Assembly (NCBI GenBank): GCA_046070685.1
Contig: JBJTMU010000010.1
Location: 18,480 to 82,479, forward strand
Source of the DNA: Flavobacteriales bacterium
GTDB taxonomy: Bacteria > Bacteroidota > Bacteroidia > Flavobacteriales_D > Crocinitomicaceae
Length of the DNA: 64,000 bases
Direction: 5' to 3'
Position 1 is the first letter of the stretch. Every line of letters starts with the position of its first letter. The position numbers and the translations under genes are program-made. This document shows positions 33,735 through 39,236 of this stretch, piece after piece. Under the pieces are notes generated by a model. The model ran no database searches. It was not told the origin of the DNA and was given only the letters and a program-made list of their open reading frames with translations.

Positions 33735-34475
33735 ATGCGATTATACCTTACTTCTGACCAATTTATTGAAACAAGTGAACCTATTGATATTTCGATGAGC
33801 TTGCAAGCGAGCATAGAAAATGTTCGTGCATGGTATGTTGATCCACCGCGAATGGAGGTCGTTCGTGCCAATGGTTTTGTCGGAAGCATCCAAGAAGGAG
33901 GAAGTGTTAACTTTCGTGATGTTTTTTTTAACCCACATGGACATGGAACCCATACGGAATGTTGTGGACATATCACCCAAGAAGTATATGCGGTTAATGA
34001 AGTGTTGAAAGAGTATTTTTATCGTGCAACCTTGCTGACAATTCAACCGATTGTCTTGGAAAATGGCGATATGGTGGTGAAAGCAGAACAATTGAAAGAA
34101 TACCTAAATAAAGATTATTCGGAGGCAATCATCATTCGCACTCTACCGAATAAGTCAGCTAAAAAATCTAAAAATTATTCAGGTACAAATCCATGTTATT
34201 TTGATGTGAAAATCGTTGAATTATTGAATGAATATGGCGTGAAACATTTCTTAGTCGATCAGCCATCAGTGGACCGTGAAGAAGATGGAGGAGCGTTGGC
34301 ATTTCATCATGCTTTTTGGAATGTCCCAGAAAAACCAAATTTCGAACGAACCATTACAGAGTTGATTTATGTTCCAACTGAAGTTGAAGACGGAAACTAT
34401 ATCTTGGAAATTCAAATGGCGGCTTTTCAAAACGATGCCAGTCCTAGTCGACCTGTATTGTATAAACTGCAATAA
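33735..34475 (+). CDS. Cyclase-family (kynurenine/aryl-formamidase fold) protein
   Basis: Metal motif HGHGTHTECCGH is a variant of HxGTHxDxPxH. The start is taken at ATG 33735; the track start at 33714 is a TTG. Confidence 0.6.
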   Translation: MRLYLTSDQFIETSEPIDISMSLQASIENVRAWYVDPPRMEVVRANGFVGSIQEGGSVNFRDVFFNPHGHGTHTECCGHITQEVYAVNEVLKEYFYRATLLTIQPIVLENGDMVVKAEQLKEYLNKDYSEAIIIRTLPNKSAKKSKNYSGTNPCYFDVKIVELLNEYGVKHFLVDQPSVDREEDGGALAFHHAFWNVPEKPNFERTITELIYVPTEVEDGNYILEIQMAAFQNDASPSRPVLYKLQ

Positions 34476-34496
34476 AAAAAGGGCTTTTCAGCCCTT
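34471..34496 (-). terminator. Intrinsic terminator oriented for the minus strand, with no annotated minus-strand gene feeding it
   Basis: The minus strand reads AAGGGCT-GAAA-AGCCCTT followed by TTTTTATT. On the plus strand the hairpin is followed by CCTAGTAG, so there is no U tract. It overlaps the cyclase stop codon. Confidence 0.5.
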
Positions 34497-34537
34497 CCTA
34501 GTAGTAGACATTAAAGTCTGAGTGGTACGATTTCAGT

Positions 34538-34708
34538 AATAAGGACAGGAACTTCTTATATATATTCCCGTAGGACGTCGACAAAAACTATTAAACTCTT
34601 ATCAAACTAGAAAATGAAACTGCCTCTCCAAGCAGTCTGTCAACTTCTACATATAAGAAGAATCCTGTTTCTCTCCTTATTTCGAATTAAAAATAAGTAG
34701 GAACTTTC
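34538..34708. repeat. Long interrupted inverted repeat plus a third direct copy of the left arm (candidate RNA structure)
   Basis: Left arm 34538-34566 pairs with right arm 34647-34682 as 7 bp, bulge, 5 bp, internal loop, 10 bp perfect (CTTCTTATAT/ATATAAGAAG), then 2 more. AATAAGTAGGAACTTTC at 34692-34708 repeats the left arm and can pair with the right arm instead. Confidence 0.5.
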
Positions 34709-34724
34709 AAACGAAACCTGACAA

Positions 34725-34787
34725 ATGAATATCGTGGCGATAGAAATGAACATTGTGCCACATTTTATGAATATTCATTTTCTCAAG
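34725..34787 (+). repeat. Three phased 21-bp imperfect direct repeats starting ATGAAYAT
   Basis: The units are ATGAATATCGTGGCGATAGAA, ATGAACATTGTGCCACATTTT and ATGAATATTCATTTTCTCAAG, starting at 34725, 34746 and 34767. The third contains the 12-nt palindrome ATGAATATTCAT. Confidence 0.6.
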
Positions 34788-34814
34788 TGCTTCATTTTTG
34801 AAGAAATTTACAGA

Positions 34815-34846
34815 AACAAAAAAGGCGCATAATTCGATGCGCCTTT
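34815..34846 (-). terminator. Intrinsic terminator after the YHYH/T9SS gene
   Basis: 10-bp stem AAAGGCGCAT / ATGCGCCTTT (34821-34830 / 34837-34846) followed by a T-rich run on the minus strand. Confidence 0.75.
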
Positions 34847-34864
34847 CCTTTTAATGGATTCTTT

Positions 34865-36220
34865 CTATTGCAGAACGATTTTTTTGGAACTACTTTGTCC
34901 CTTGATTTTAACATGGTAAATGCCTTTGTAAAGCACATCTGCGTTAAAATAGGCAATCGTACTTCCTTGAACGATTTGCTGTGTTTGAATTAGTTTGCCC
35001 AATGCATCGTATAATTCAACTGTTTGCGTTTGATTTGTTAAATCATTCAATTGAACCATAATGATATCGTTGCTTGGATTAGGATAAACAGACCAATCAT
35101 TTTCGTTTAATTCAATCAAACCAACATTTGATGTGTATGTCGTCACTGTCTCCGTAATAGAGCTTACTTTAGCAGCCGTCTTCACACCGTAAAAAGTGGG
35201 TCCAACAACATACGGATAAGCGGAATTCCATTGATCGTCAACAGTGGCGAAATAACAATAGATCCCATTTGGGTATTCCGGTGTAACACAAAATCGGCCA
35301 TTGTGAATGTCTAAAAAATCTCCTTCTGGATGACTGATAAATTCATAGTCTTCTCGAAAATAGCCCAAAGGATAAGTTGTACTTACCGCTGGACCATCTG
35401 GAACATCTGTTCCATCTGCCCAAATCGTTCGTGTGGATATATTTCGTAATTGATAACTTGATTTCATTCGGGTGATTCCACCTGATCCATCAACATTTTT
35501 GTAACCATAAGCTCCGTAAATAGGAAAACCATCGTATGCATAACCAATCAATGGTGAATGAACCATTGAGTCAATCACGTACAATCCATCGGCGTCATAT
35601 AAATCACAAACATTCGAAATTACGGTCAAATCGAGTTTAAATGCACTTGGATTTTGGTGATGGTGATAATTTCCTTGTGCAGGATGTCCTTTTGAACAAT
35701 CAAACCCTGGTTTTTCAGCTGGAACAGCATCTCTGTTCCATGGCATGTTCGCAGCGGGTCCTCCTGGACAAGGTGGATTTCCTGGGCCTCCACACAAGGC
35801 ATTCGTCGCGGTATTCCAAGCCACACCATCTCGGTAGTCAAACAAAGCGACGCCATTCACGAAAATCCCGATGTTTCCACCAGTAGTTGCGGTTAAGGTC
35901 CCTGTATTTTGTGCTGGATTTAACGGAATTTTAAAAATGGCATTTTGATTTGTCGCCAAAGATGGATTTCCATCCATAAATGGACCTGTTATGTAAGATG
36001 GTACGCCTGTTGTCGTCACATAGACCCAATTAGTGGAATATTGAACGTTTTGGACATTTGCTAACGTTGTTTCAATGATAGGTGTAGAATTACCTTGAAC
36101 ATAATGTCTTCCAGTTATTCCGGCCGTATTGATGAGCCAATGTTCAATGGCTGGATTCAATTGCGCTGATGCTTGCCATCCGCATGCAAACAAGAATAGA
36201 AATAGTGCATTTTTTCTCAT
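34865..36220 (-). CDS. YHYH-domain protein with T9SS C-terminal sorting domain
   Basis: Signal peptide. Motifs FDCSKGHPAQGNYHHHQNP and LDIHNGRFCVTPEYPNGIYCYFAT match the YHYH family pattern. The C-terminus VYPNPSNDIIMVQL...GIYHVKI...IVLQ is a type-A CTD. Confidence 0.75.
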   Translation of the reverse strand: MRKNALFLFLFACGWQASAQLNPAIEHWLINTAGITGRHYVQGNSTPIIETTLANVQNVQYSTNWVYVTTTGVPSYITGPFMDGNPSLATNQNAIFKIPLNPAQNTGTLTATTGGNIGIFVNGVALFDYRDGVAWNTATNALCGGPGNPPCPGGPAANMPWNRDAVPAEKPGFDCSKGHPAQGNYHHHQNPSAFKLDLTVISNVCDLYDADGLYVIDSMVHSPLIGYAYDGFPIYGAYGYKNVDGSGGITRMKSSYQLRNISTRTIWADGTDVPDGPAVSTTYPLGYFREDYEFISHPEGDFLDIHNGRFCVTPEYPNGIYCYFATVDDQWNSAYPYVVGPTFYGVKTAAKVSSITETVTTYTSNVGLIELNENDWSVYPNPSNDIIMVQLNDLTNQTQTVELYDALGKLIQTQQIVQGSTIAYFNADVLYKGIYHVKIKGQSSSKKIVLQ

Positions 36221-36249
36221 GGGTAAATAATTGTATTTAAAGTTAGAAG

Positions 36250-37293
36250 TTAATTTTTATCATTACTTGCGCTTCGCTCGTTTTTTGGAAACTTAAATGC
36301 CGGATTAAATAAAAACGTGGGGTCACTTAAGGTTTTTAAAAAGGCCAGTAAATCCTTTTGCTCATGGGCTGAAAGTGTGCGATTTAATTTCTTCAATTCT
36401 TTACTGTAATAAGTCTGATGAGAGTGTAGTTCTGCGTAATGAGACAGCACTTCTTTTAAACTTTTAAATCGTCCATCGTGCATATACGGGAAACTAAATT
36501 CAATATTCCGAAGGGTCGGTATTTTAAATAATAAGGAGTCCGATGCTCGATGCGTAATACCCATTCGACCCACATCCTTAAGCGCAGTTGAATACGGTAA
36601 GCCATTAGATTTAAATTCATTTTTGGTAAATAATGGTTCTTGATGACATGAAGCACAATACTTTTTGAAAAGCTGATAGCCTGATTTTTCTTGCGGAGAA
36701 AAGGAACTTTCTCCATTCTTTACGTGATCATACTTGGATTGAGCAGAAACCAACGACACCGTAAAATTTGCCAAAGCTTTGAGTAGATGGGAAGCTTCAA
36801 TCGCACTGTCGCCAAAAGCAGCATAAAATCTAGATCGATAAAATGTAGAGGCATTCAGTCGTCTTAATATTTCTTCAAGCGTATTGTCCATTTCCTTTGG
36901 ATGGGTGAGTGGATTGATGGCTTGTTTGTTTAGGGAACTAACTCCTCCATCCCAATGAAAAGAATTTTGCCAAGCAAGATTGATTAATACCGGAGCATTT
37001 CTGGTTCCTATTTGACCATCGATTCCATGACTGAGCGCGTGGTCAATGTGTGTGAATCCGGAATACTGCAAATGACAATTGGCGCATGAAATAGTGCTAT
37101 CTCTTGATAAATCAGGATCATAAAATAATGTTCGACCTAATTCAAATTTTTCTTCAGAAAGGGGATTGTACGAAAAATCATAGCTTGGTTTTGGCCATTT
37201 GGTGGGTATATAAAAAGGCGTGTCATTCCTCACACCTGCAAAGAAAAGAAGCAGTAAACAAAGGGATCCGAAAAACAAGGCAAATCTTTTCAT
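36250..37293 (-). CDS. Di-haem cytochrome c peroxidase/MauG-family enzyme (MbnH-like)
   Basis: Two CxxCH motifs (CANCH, CASCH), PTLRNIEFSFPYMHDG, and a size of 347 aa. Overlaps the upstream MbnP-like gene by 4 nt. Confidence 0.85.
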   Translation of the reverse strand: MKRFALFFGSLCLLLLFFAGVRNDTPFYIPTKWPKPSYDFSYNPLSEEKFELGRTLFYDPDLSRDSTISCANCHLQYSGFTHIDHALSHGIDGQIGTRNAPVLINLAWQNSFHWDGGVSSLNKQAINPLTHPKEMDNTLEEILRRLNASTFYRSRFYAAFGDSAIEASHLLKALANFTVSLVSAQSKYDHVKNGESSFSPQEKSGYQLFKKYCASCHQEPLFTKNEFKSNGLPYSTALKDVGRMGITHRASDSLLFKIPTLRNIEFSFPYMHDGRFKSLKEVLSHYAELHSHQTYYSKELKKLNRTLSAHEQKDLLAFLKTLSDPTFLFNPAFKFPKNERSASNDKN

Positions 37294-37940
37294 TCGGAAT
37301 AAAAATATGGGGAGAGTTTTTGGCAGTAATCTTTTGCTGTTTTTCCTGGAATCATTATTCGTTGAGCCTGCTGAAAGTCAACTGTGTTTTCAAAAAATGG
37401 TTTTAAATCGAGGATTAAATGAGTTCCTTTCAGGACTAATTCAACTGGTACCATGGTTTCATACGGTTGACGATAACCTCCTAAATGGTATTCAAATTGT
37501 TGGTCTGAAATAGGCAATGAAGAGGAAATACCGGTGCATTTAAATTGAATGTATCCAGAATTCCATGCCCAATACATGCCATTCATTGGATTAAGCGGAC
37601 CTTCGAGTATTTCTGAAACATGATATAAACTATCCATGCCAAAATGAAAGCTGATGGATTTGTAGTCTTTTACAGGGAAATCCTTAAAAATTGTCCAAGT
37701 GCTTGAATCTTCAGCATCGCAAAGAATTGGTTTAACAATGACTTGCTTTCTCCCTTCTTTTTCAAAAGTAAAGTCAGATAAATAGTATTTTATTTCTTGA
37801 AATGTCAGACTATCGGATCCTAGTTGGTACCATTTCCCCAAGGCAATTTCTTCAGTTCCCCAGTGCATCGAAACCTGTAATTGGGCAAAGGAATCAAGTT
37901 TAAAAACAAGTAGAAAACAAGAAAGAATCAGAAACTTCAT
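37290..37940 (-). CDS. MbnP-family protein (putative copper-binding partner of MbnH)
   Basis: Signal peptide. Motifs GMYWAWNSGYIQFKCTG and FEYHLGGY match the MbnP pattern I recall. It lies immediately upstream of, and overlapping, the di-haem peroxidase gene. Confidence 0.75.
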   Translation of the reverse strand: MKFLILSCFLLVFKLDSFAQLQVSMHWGTEEIALGKWYQLGSDSLTFQEIKYYLSDFTFEKEGRKQVIVKPILCDAEDSSTWTIFKDFPVKDYKSISFHFGMDSLYHVSEILEGPLNPMNGMYWAWNSGYIQFKCTGISSSLPISDQQFEYHLGGYRQPYETMVPVELVLKGTHLILDLKPFFENTVDFQQAQRIMIPGKTAKDYCQKLSPYFYSE

Positions 37941-38374
37941 CGCTTTTTAGTTGGCATTGGCTTGCCAGCCATTTCAATCATTCGACGGATCACGCGTTTC
38001 AATGCTTTTTTTTCTTGAGGATTACATTTTTCATTCACCCGAATAAAATGATTAAACGTGCAAGAATCGATTTGAAATTGAATGCGACTAATTTCTTCAA
38101 ATAGTTGTTGGTTTTTCGTTGAATGTGTTGCCGAAATACTAACTTTTTTTCGCAGGGATTTTTGCTGAGCTAAAAGTTTTTGTTTTTCCTGGATGTGTCG
38201 TTTGAATTCATGGTCCACCCAGCGAGCATTTTCACCTTTCATTCCGAGCGCCACACTTAATTTTGGCGGATGAGGAGGCATGTGATGCAGTCCTCTCGGA
38301 CACGAAAAAAGGAAGATGACGTTCAATATGACGATGATTCCTAAACAAACTAATAAAATACGATTCGTTTTCAT
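37937..38374 (-). CDS. Small envelope protein, possible Spy/CpxP/ZraP-like periplasmic metal sensor
   Basis: N-terminal hydrophobic segment with LFSC lipobox, His/Met/Pro patch LHHMPPHPP, and a helical Lys/Gln-rich body. Confidence 0.4.
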   Translation of the reverse strand: MKTNRILLVCLGIIVILNVIFLFSCPRGLHHMPPHPPKLSVALGMKGENARWVDHEFKRHIQEKQKLLAQQKSLRKKVSISATHSTKNQQLFEEISRIQFQIDSCTFNHFIRVNEKCNPQEKKALKRVIRRMIEMAGKPMPTKKR

Positions 38375-38384
38375 GCTTCTTGAA

Positions 38385-38615
38385 TTACATTGTCAGGTTT
38401 GAGCCAAAATTAGCATATTGTGTTTCAAAAATCTGATCCTCGTTCCATTTTTCTTTTGCGGACAGAAAATAAATCACATTGAACACAATCAAGGCACTCG
38501 TCAGGATACTGACAAGAACAGTTCGTGTTTTTATTTTTTGAACATAAACGGGACTCTTCAAAAGTTGCTCGTGAAGTTTGGCGCTTACTTCAATGATTTC
38601 AGTGGTTGGTTTCAT
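38385..38615 (-). CDS. 76-aa single-TM protein, candidate anti-sigma factor
   Basis: Cytoplasmic N-terminal ~35 aa, then TM VLVSILTSALIVFNVIYFL. It lies directly downstream of the ECF sigma gene. Confidence 0.4.
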   Translation of the reverse strand: MKPTTEIIEVSAKLHEQLLKSPVYVQKIKTRTVLVSILTSALIVFNVIYFLSAKEKWNEDQIFETQYANFGSNLTM

Positions 38616-38663
38616 GTGGAATATGTGTTTATTTGGATGTCTTTTAGCTTGTTAACTTGTGGA

Positions 38664-39236
38664 TTAAAGCCAGTTTTTTAGAATAGGATCCTTCAGTTGT
38701 TTGATTAATTGTTGCTTTGCTCGAAAAATGAGAGATTCCACTGCGGATAAGGATAACTGCATACTCTCACTAATTTCTAAGTAGCTGAATTGTTCAAAAT
38801 GATGTAAACTATACGCCACTCGTTGGTTTTCAGCTAATCGTTGTAAGGCGGTAAAAAAGACTTTTGCTCGTTCGGTTTCCATTAATTTTTCTTCCGGATT
38901 AAGCTCCCCTTGATCAGGAAATTGAATCAACGTTTCATCGATTTGAACGTGGATGCCAAAGCGTTTTTTTCGCCTTGCTCGTCGCATATATTCGAGGCAT
39001 TTATTCAAGGTAATCCGATGAATCCAAGTGGAAAGTTGCGACTCCCCTTTGAATGAATGCATGGACTGATAAATGGCAATAAAGATGTCTTGAGTGGCAT
39101 CTTCTGCTTCTTCTCGATTTTGCAACAAATGCCAACACATATTCAGGACTTTTTTTTCAAAGTGTTGAACCAACAATTCAAAGGTTTGAATGTCGCCTCG
39201 TTGCAAAGAAAGAATGTCTATTTCGACCGGCATCAT
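38664..39236 (-). CDS. ECF-type RNA polymerase sigma-70 factor
   Basis: Region 2 (EDATQDIFIAIYQSMHSFKGESQLSTWIHRITLNKCLEYMR) and region 4 (FSYLEISESMQLSLSAVESLIFRAKQQL). Confidence 0.9.
   Translation of the reverse strand: MMPVEIDILSLQRGDIQTFELLVQHFEKKVLNMCWHLLQNREEAEDATQDIFIAIYQSMHSFKGESQLSTWIHRITLNKCLEYMRRARRKKRFGIHVQIDETLIQFPDQGELNPEEKLMETERAKVFFTALQRLAENQRVAYSLHHFEQFSYLEISESMQLSLSAVESLIFRAKQQLIKQLKDPILKNWL

Follow-up and report, generated by a model that had tools for sequence, protein, structure and literature searches.

The window analyzed here, a stretch of 64,000 nucleotides from a Flavobacteriales bacterium of the family Crocinitomicaceae (Bacteroidota), includes a gap between two convergent genes, one encoding a PF04199 "putative cyclase" and the other a YHYH protein. 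With a probability of about 0.66, we read this gap as encoding, on its minus strand and as a gene of its own, a structured non-coding RNA of some 210 nucleotides, which would be activated by a LytTR-type response regulator and would act in trans. Sequence comparison shows, on the minus strand of the gap, a single-locus RNA gene that is conserved and covaries and that has promoter-like as well as terminator elements. In the fold supported by this comparison, a long irregular closing helix (P1-P2-P3) presents a hairpin with a GGAG loop together with an unpaired, U-rich block; upstream, an operator-like triple repeat is found, and a LytTR two-component system is syntenic with the RNA in related genomes. 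Most likely, the RNA is switched on by this system, which would be dedicated to it. A preliminary description of the window had proposed a structured minus-strand small RNA (sRNA) ending at an "orphan" terminator, and this proposal was borne out in more than 100 species-level genomes by compensatory changes, a conserved promoter-like element and, in 99 of 106 homologues, a terminator. The assembly is a fragmented metagenome-assembled genome (MAG) of 2.44 Mb in 129 contigs, estimated to be 94% complete.

Fold and covariation of the RNA

Folding of the exact predicted transcript yields a minimum free energy of -67 kcal/mol (z -4.95) and a structure that recovers P1, P2, P4, P5, P6 and the terminator (Table 1). 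The wider minus-strand region 34466-34815 folds at -102 kcal/mol, against -71 ± 5 kcal/mol for shuffled sequences (z -6.1), and the plus strand folds more poorly than the minus strand (z -4.0). The long interrupted stem of the preliminary description is present, with inverted-repeat arms at 34538-34552/34667-34681 (15 nucleotides, 87%) and 34552-34564/34648-34660 (13 nucleotides, 92%), and carries many compensatory changes among homologues. The 80 nucleotides within it, previously thought capable of rod-like pairing, turn out to hold two small hairpins and an invariant unpaired block. A third copy of the left-arm sequence (34692-34708) does exist, but the alternative helix that had been suggested for it is unsupported, since the segment lies upstream of the inferred start, overlaps the -7 box and belongs to a non-conserved promoter spacer.

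Covariation was assessed on two alignments. In alignment A3, in which 99 homologues were aligned with MAFFT blind to structure, 86.5% of the cells pair, compared with 40 to 50% in controls with slid partners; double changes occur at 22 pairs, and the covariation score is 0.204, against 0.118 ± 0.003 for shuffled alignments (0 of 500) and at most 0.064 for the slid controls. On this same alignment, P1b and P2 together comprise 20 pairs, 94% paired, 11 of which show double changes. The family-wide alignment A6, which was fitted to the covariance model and hence leans towards it, shows double changes in 40 of 42 pairs and a covariation score of 0.353 (versus 0.133). The check for compensatory changes in relatives that the preliminary description had called for is thereby answered in both alignments, with changes beyond the controls, as expected of a structured RNA. 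The many G-U pairs also confirm the minus strand as the relevant one, since read from the opposite strand they would become A-C mismatches. The covariance model R1 (149 positions, 42 pairs) scores 169.6 bits on 34535-34683.

Among the individual helices, P3 shows compensatory changes such as GCUGAC/GUCAGC in locus L133, with all six pairs double-changed in the family-wide alignment; marine lineages have a longer P5 in its place. In the same marine lineages, a U-G pair of P4 is replaced by U-A. P5 covaries (UCC-GAAA-GGA; GACCC-GCCA-GGGUC), and P6 is kept in freshwater lineages (GGC/GCC in L035-L037) and absent from marine ones. The most conserved segment across the family consists not of the stems but of P4, its GGAG loop and the next 35 unpaired bases. 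The unpaired block, of which UUUCAUUUUCUAG/GAUAAGAGUUUAAUAG are parts, hardly varies in sequence and yielded no covarying partner; conserved unpaired sequence of this kind points to direct recognition of another molecule. A pseudoknot of UUUUCU with either the AGAGAA bulge or the GGAG loop was also considered and is unsupported, as the bulge varies and the block does not. Separately, P4 followed by UUUCAUUUU (34617-34638, minus strand) was listed as terminator-like by a consensus scan, and the two could constitute an internal attenuator, giving rise to a short form of about 75 nucleotides.

Promoter-like elements and the LytTR two-component system

Transcription probably starts about 4 nucleotides past a candidate Bacteroidota -7 box. 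In the homologues, a TAnnTT(T/A)(A/G) box is found at a fixed place, 4 nucleotides ahead of GAAAUAAGG; over the 106 non-redundant homologues, in minus-strand orientation, the box is followed by four bases and then by GAAAUAAGGAG, and L104, L064, L135 and L107 contain an exact TAnnTTTG. The conserved box is thus located at 34688-34695 and not at 34803-34810, where the preliminary description had placed its nearest promoter-like match. At the other end of the transcript, the second hairpin of that description is indeed oriented for the minus strand; viewed from the plus strand, it has A7 ahead of it and CCTAGTAG behind it, without a U tract. A consensus terminator scan did not list this hairpin (34496-34479), apparently because the stem was extended into the T-run via A-T and G-T pairs, leaving too few T residues. 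The 99 homologues with a terminator share a GC-rich hairpin of varying sequence and a U-run (T5 or more), 180 to 225 nucleotides downstream of the inferred start. Seven homologues fall short of this, and in the five of them that could be assessed, a weaker, U-rich terminator can be seen. A fixed promoter-like element and a 3' hairpin with U-run are accordingly found on one and the same strand, as expected of an independent sRNA gene.

Upstream of the candidate promoter, three boxes start at 34774, 34753 and 34732 (minus strand), with a period of exactly 21 bp. The homologues also contain three boxes, reading (A/G)AT(A/G)TTCA and repeated with the same exact period, and in 100 homologues no gap interrupts the register of these boxes with the -7 box and the start of the RNA. 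Upstream of the RNA, conservation is strongest at box 3, whose distance from the RNA is constant in nearly all genera; a non-conserved spacer of about 27 nucleotides separates this box from the -7 box. In the entire 2.44-Mb genome, there is only one ATRTTCA-N14-ATRTTCA array. Boxes 2 and 3 (AATATTCATT-N11-AATATTCATT) are kept in other genera, where they directly follow the stop codon of a LytTR regulator gene. A LytTR operator is built of 9-bp direct repeats that are 12 bp apart and lie immediately ahead of the promoter (PMC6193735); the boxes share this geometry, with 9 bp plus 12 bp giving a 21-bp period. Neither the three phased boxes nor the LytTR link was part of the reading given in the preliminary description.

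The regulator itself was identified by clustering the neighbours of the RNA over 150 loci. In most other genera, the upstream neighbours are a 247-amino-acid protein with Response_reg and LytTR domains and, ahead of it, a 740-amino-acid protein that combines a signal peptide and TPR repeats with a transmembrane segment, a His_kinase domain (PF06580) and HATPase_c (Pfam assignments). Between the stop codon of the regulator gene and the RNA start lie about 105 nucleotides, which are filled by the boxes (AATATTCATT-N11-AATATTCATT and a weaker distal one). Regulator and RNA are found as a pair in the complete 4.6-Mb genomes G180 and G194, among others, and in genomes labelled Fluviicola. In genus g30, the regulator is found beside the RNA although the cyclase is 13 to 200 kb off. 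The window genome encodes one LytTR (PF04397) protein (C81:7112-7849), which is 62% identical to the RNA-adjacent regulators; by adjacency in most other genera, and as the sole LytTR protein of the window genome, the regulator can be assigned to the boxes. The kinase gene upstream of this regulator gene is cut by the contig end; the region C81:7112-8380, which includes the regulator gene, holds only the last ~113 residues of the kinase, and a weak match (25% identity) to the TPR part of the kinase is located on contig C128. Orthologues of the regulator (at least 56% identity) are present in 12 of 12 RNA-carrying genera, and the 12 genera (51 genomes) that lack one have zero RNA matches, a co-occurrence in the predicted direction that is nevertheless a weak statistic owing to kinship. 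Box arrays upstream of the kinase gene, which would suggest autoregulation, were not consistently found.

In summary, this yields the following proposed mechanism. A signal would be passed on by the TPR-domain histidine kinase, of the LytS/PF06580 type, to the LytTR regulator (C81), which in its phosphorylated form would probably bind the three repeats near -45, -67 and -88. From there, the regulator may recruit RNA polymerase to a promoter without a -33 element. We speculate that the RNA might be the main output of the two-component system and that, by means of the unpaired block and the GGAG loop, it might act in trans on either mRNAs or an RNA-binding protein.

Several observations weigh against this proposal. 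We counted against it, first, that the transcript, along with both its ends and its induction, is predicted from sequence. The -7 box is imperfect, its final base being A instead of G, and a canonical -33 TTTG is not present at the usual spacing. Exact complementarity of the conserved block to start regions does not exceed 12 nucleotides (two genes), with lengths equal to those of a reversed control, and the genome-wide ungapped pairing score equals that of the control, such that no target can be named; an RNAduplex search of 2,200 start regions likewise returned only long, loopy and meaningless duplexes, and none of the three screens could be told apart from reversed-sequence controls. In some genera, the regulator orthologue is present and the RNA is undetected or rare (g43, 0 of 4; g47, 0 of 1; g35, 1 of 8). 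The RNA is absent from the region directly downstream of the regulator orthologue in g43, g47, g27 and g37; of two g35 genomes viewed there, one has a diverged RNA-like stretch (L197) and the other has none (L196). In g39, the place of the RNA behind the boxes is taken by a gene encoding a membrane protein of about 100 amino acids, as if the operator had persisted in that genus and its target had been exchanged; the regulator is therefore not necessarily dedicated to the RNA in every genus. Locus L201 (G077:C1:86100-87700, g39) contains, in order, the LytTR regulator, 21-bp-spaced AATATTCAT boxes, the membrane-protein gene and a terminator. Finally, the regulator is unlinked to the RNA in the genus of the window, and the link in the window genome therefore rests on uniqueness and orthology.

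Table 1. Coordinates (positions in the window) of the predicted RNA, its helices, its candidate control elements and the flanking genes
Feature	Position	Strand	Details
Small RNA (predicted), ~210 nt	34474..34683	minus	Inferred start G34683 ± 2; end in U-run 34478-34474
Closing helix, 5' strands	34648..34681	minus	P1a 34681-34675, AGAGAA bulge 34674-34669, P1b 34668-34664, P2 34662-34648; includes Shine-Dalgarno (SD)-like AAGGAG
Closing helix, 3' strands	34538..34564	minus	P1a 34544-34538, P1b 34549-34545, P2 34564-34550; partner 34648-34681
P1a			AAUAAGG / CCUUAUU
P1b			ACAGG / CCUGU
P2			13-15 bp
P3 helix	34577..34644	minus	GUUGAC 34644-34639 / GUCGAC 34582-34577; encloses P4 and the unpaired block
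P4 hairpin	34620..34635	minus	CUGCUU-GGAG-AGGCAG; almost invariant across the family, ~99% paired
Unpaired conserved block	34583..34619	minus	UUUCAUUUUCUAGUUUGAUAAGAGUUUAAUAGUUUUU; 35-37 nt, U-rich; candidate functional surface
P5 small hairpin	34566..34575	minus	UCC-UACG-GGA; 3/3 pairs with double changes
P6 hairpin	34506..34519	minus	AGAC-UUUAAU-GUCU; between core and terminator
Intrinsic terminator of the RNA	34474..34496	minus	Hairpin AAGGGCT-GAAA-AGCCCTT 34496-34479 and U5 34478-34474; overlaps the cyclase stop codon
Candidate -7 box	34688..34695	minus	TATTTTTA (consensus TAnnTTTG); promoter role inferred
Box 3, proximal repeat	34726..34732	minus	ATATTCA, extended GATATTCATTTG; ~-49 to -43 from the inferred start
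Box 2, middle repeat	34747..34753	minus	ATGTTCA; ~-70 to -64
Box 1, distal repeat	34768..34774	minus	ATATTCA; ~-91 to -85; register kept in 100 ungapped homologues
Gap between convergent genes	34476-34864		Holds the minus-strand transcription unit (predicted)
PF04199 "putative cyclase" gene	33714/33735-34475	plus	Stop codon TAA 34473-34475
YHYH gene	34865-36220	minus	Type IX secretion system (T9SS) sorting tail; last gene of an MbnP/MauG-type operon
Terminator of the YHYH operon	34849..34818	minus	13 pairs, then T-run

Distribution and genomic setting

A BLAST search with the gap found matches in 33 of 36 genomes of the same genus and in none of 24 genomes from other families, with the conserved core (34535-34700) coinciding with the inverted repeat. 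An exact-pattern scan of the GTDB species-representative genomes placed the motif at 102 loci, most of them in MAGs that come from lakes, rivers and the ocean and are labelled Crocinitomicaceae, Flavobacteriales or Bacteroidota. Model R1, which is short-calibrated and therefore gives rough E-values, matched 61 of 151 family genomes (12 of 29 genera), complete genomes of 3 to 4.6 Mb among them, and none of 129 genomes in 15 other Flavobacteriales families; partial matches in distant genera span P4 and the unpaired block only (model positions 45 to 102). R1 gives a single match per genome, and in the 2.44-Mb assembly the DNA of the gap has no self-matches beyond itself and chance 15- to 19-mers, which settles the check for a dispersed repeat: the element is single copy there, unlike a miniature inverted-repeat transposable element (MITE). 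In marine lineages, two to four paralogues of the RNA stand in tandem, with separate boxes and a separate terminator for each. At nine marine loci (L024, L025, L072, L105, L109, L110, L119, L122 and L127), the last tandem copy is diverged and lacks the standard boxes; it retains GAUAAGAGUUUAAUAGUUUU, with the UUUCAUUUUCUAG part altered.

A cmscan run of positions 34000 to 35300 against the 4,227 families of Rfam 15 (E ≤ 10), another check named in the preliminary description, returned no family at its gathering threshold. The matches inside the RNA are at chance level (rli23, 21 bits versus 45; L20_leader, 20 versus 58.7), and a match to STnc40 (31 versus 45) merely represents the YHYH terminator. 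A literature search found no paper on such an RNA. Apparently, then, it constitutes a new and undescribed RNA family, conserved within Crocinitomicaceae; we rate it as a regulatory RNA dedicated to a two-component system, a kind already known elsewhere.

As for its neighbours, the convergent cyclase gene is found downstream at 105 of the 150 loci, across genera. It is a single-copy core gene (145 of 151 family genomes, 29 of 29 genera, 41 to 91% identity) and has no recognizable terminator on its own strand. In L035-L037, the sequence past the RNA terminator (e.g., ...TTGGTGCAGCATCG) resembles, by eye, the 3' end of a convergent tRNA gene and not the cyclase. In the window and its close relatives, the upstream neighbour is the YHYH gene, whose own minus-strand terminator is present in the window as previously described; other members of the genus have a GNAT gene there, with sprA ahead of it. 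In the window, an operon encoding an extracytoplasmic function (ECF) sigma factor and MbnP, MauG-like and YHYH proteins (34865-39236) sits between the GNAT gene and the RNA gene. In sister species (loci L141-L143 and L025), the RNA gene comes directly after sprA-GNAT; the operon in the window therefore seems to have been inserted into the conserved gene order sprA-GNAT-RNA-cyclase-glyS. A functional tie between the RNA and the YHYH/MbnP/MbnH operon was rejected on the same ground.

Alternative explanations and known counterparts

Given that no mRNA target stands out, the same RNA, under the same regulator, might titrate a protein of the RRM RNA-binding type, or ribosomes by means of its SD-like AAGGAG and its GGAG loop. 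While the invariance of that loop and of the long unpaired block, the two RRM_1 proteins encoded in the window genome and the two to four tandem paralogues of marine lineages (as seen with Rsm/Csr/Qrr-type RNAs) would all fit titration, we consider it unlikely. Neither CsrA (PF02599) nor Hfq was found in the 94%-complete window genome, the RNA holds only two or three GGA motifs, compared with the many copies in sequestering RNAs, and no partner protein is linked to the locus; both the protein and the motif array of a CsrA/RsmA-sequestering RNA are thus missing. Action in cis on the convergent cyclase, by which read-through antisense in either direction would make for mutual regulation, draws on the frequent convergent arrangement of the two genes, on the overlap of the RNA terminator with the cyclase stop codon in the window and on the lack of a U tract for that hairpin on the plus strand. 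However, the cyclase gene is also part of the core genome in 17 genera without the RNA, and the RNA and cyclase genes are 13 to 200 kb apart in g30 and g36, the g30 regulator still being located beside the RNA. Since the cyclase gene is core in RNA-less genera and unlinked in some carriers, cis interplay is possible locally but not as a conserved function, and it would leave the invariant block and the covarying fold unexplained; we regard this explanation as improbable. The cyclase was tried as a target of the RNA as well and rejected: its start region shows no complementarity to the RNA in 103 loci, and it is a core gene that is not always adjacent.

That the RNA represents a divergent 6S RNA of the family, binding RNA polymerase as an open-promoter mimic, is suggested by its size of about 200 nucleotides, by its long irregular closing helix and by the lack of any other candidate: RF00013 and RF01685 (6S-Flavo) find none in the window genome, and RF01685 finds none in 61 family genomes. 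The latter negative carries no information, however, because the RF01685 control matched nothing anywhere; a 6S RNA of Crocinitomicaceae, if any, escapes current models. With no model match, no terminal stem and no two-sided central bubble (a loop of 3 nucleotides faces one of 37 nucleotides plus a hairpin), with a patchy distribution (12 of 29 genera) and tandem copies in place of a near-universal single copy, and with an activator-type promoter and a terminator of its own, the element makes a very poor 6S candidate. Finally, it is hardly credible that the region holds no RNA gene and owes its features to a MITE-like repeat, to a gene for a small protein that has decayed or escaped annotation, or to a hairpin formed by chance. 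Short open reading frames (ORFs) of 23 to 37 codons do overlap it on both strands, but they are not conserved; the region is single copy, its stem substitutions are compensatory, its indels are not multiples of three and its folding z-score is -5 to -6.

The reading that we prefer, a LytTR-activated and trans-acting sRNA, has well-studied parallels in other phyla. In Staphylococcus aureus, AgrC-AgrA of the agr system drives RNAIII, a 514-nucleotide RNA that carries hld, from promoter P3. The Crocinitomicaceae locus is similar in that a structured, terminator-ended RNA, the proposed main output, is encoded beside the system, and in that a LytTR regulator is combined with direct repeats at a 21-bp period upstream of a weak promoter (geometry in PMC6193735). 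There is, however, no homology in sequence or structure, and the Rfam scan did not return RNAIII (RF00503); the RNA described here is 210 nucleotides long, compared with 514, and has no hld-like ORF. The genes flanking the RNA are those for the TPR kinase, LytTR regulator, cyclase, YceI and GNAT as well as sprA; AgrB/AgrD peptide-signal genes are not seen among them, and the kinase couples an extracytoplasmic TPR domain to a PF06580 core. The host, moreover, belongs to the Bacteroidota, where promoters are of the -7/-33 type, and Hfq was not found in it; there are three repeats as opposed to two. The resemblance to agr is one of working mode, not of membership. A more far-reaching version, which we think improbable, would make the RNA the sole output of the TPR-kinase/LytTR system and an independently arisen Bacteroidota counterpart of agr/RNAIII. 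The RNA would interact with ribosomes, or else with a novel RNA-binding protein, via its two exposed SD-like motifs, the 5' AAGGAG and the GGAG loop, and via UUUCAUUUU, the complement of AAAAUGAAA, an A-rich start-codon context, as an anti-start-codon block, and would change translation globally instead of acting on single mRNAs.

VirS/VirR of Clostridium perfringens provides a second parallel: VirR boxes, which are paired direct repeats, are located upstream of few targets, including VR-RNA (vrr), which relays the signal to many genes. A LytTR-family regulator, direct repeats and a regulatory RNA as the target are common to both, whereas the phylum, the box sequence and the RNA differ, and VirR also drives toxin genes while the array described here is unique in its genome. 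In Proteobacteria, sRNA genes are the principal or only promoter targets of the GacA-RsmX/Y/Z, LuxO-Qrr1-5 and GlrR-GlmY circuits. As in those circuits, which comprise one to several sRNA paralogues with the same upstream activating sequence, there are one to four tandem copies here; their regulators, on the other hand, are of the NarL/FixJ or NtrC/sigma-54 type, and their RNAs act via CsrA/RsmA or Hfq, neither of which was found in the window genome. The RNA is also comparable in size to 6S-Flavo (RF01685) and other Bacteroidota families in Rfam, which are structured intergenic non-coding RNAs of Flavobacteriia, but the best RF01685 score in the genome is 21.9 bits, against a cut-off of 85, and is found elsewhere than at the RNA.

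Apart from gut Bacteroides, the Bacteroidota have, to our knowledge, hardly any known regulatory RNAs. Bacteroidota hardly use SD pairing, and their ribosomes normally hide the anti-SD sequence. The covariance model presented here is a candidate for a new Rfam family. The family includes abundant freshwater and marine Crocinitomicaceae and complete genomes labelled Fluviicola. A cultivable host probably exists. With a TPR sensor kinase, one LytTR regulator, a genome-unique operator-like array and one conserved structured RNA, the locus would constitute a defined circuit that bears on the question of how sRNAs work in bacteria with neither Hfq nor CsrA and with little SD pairing.

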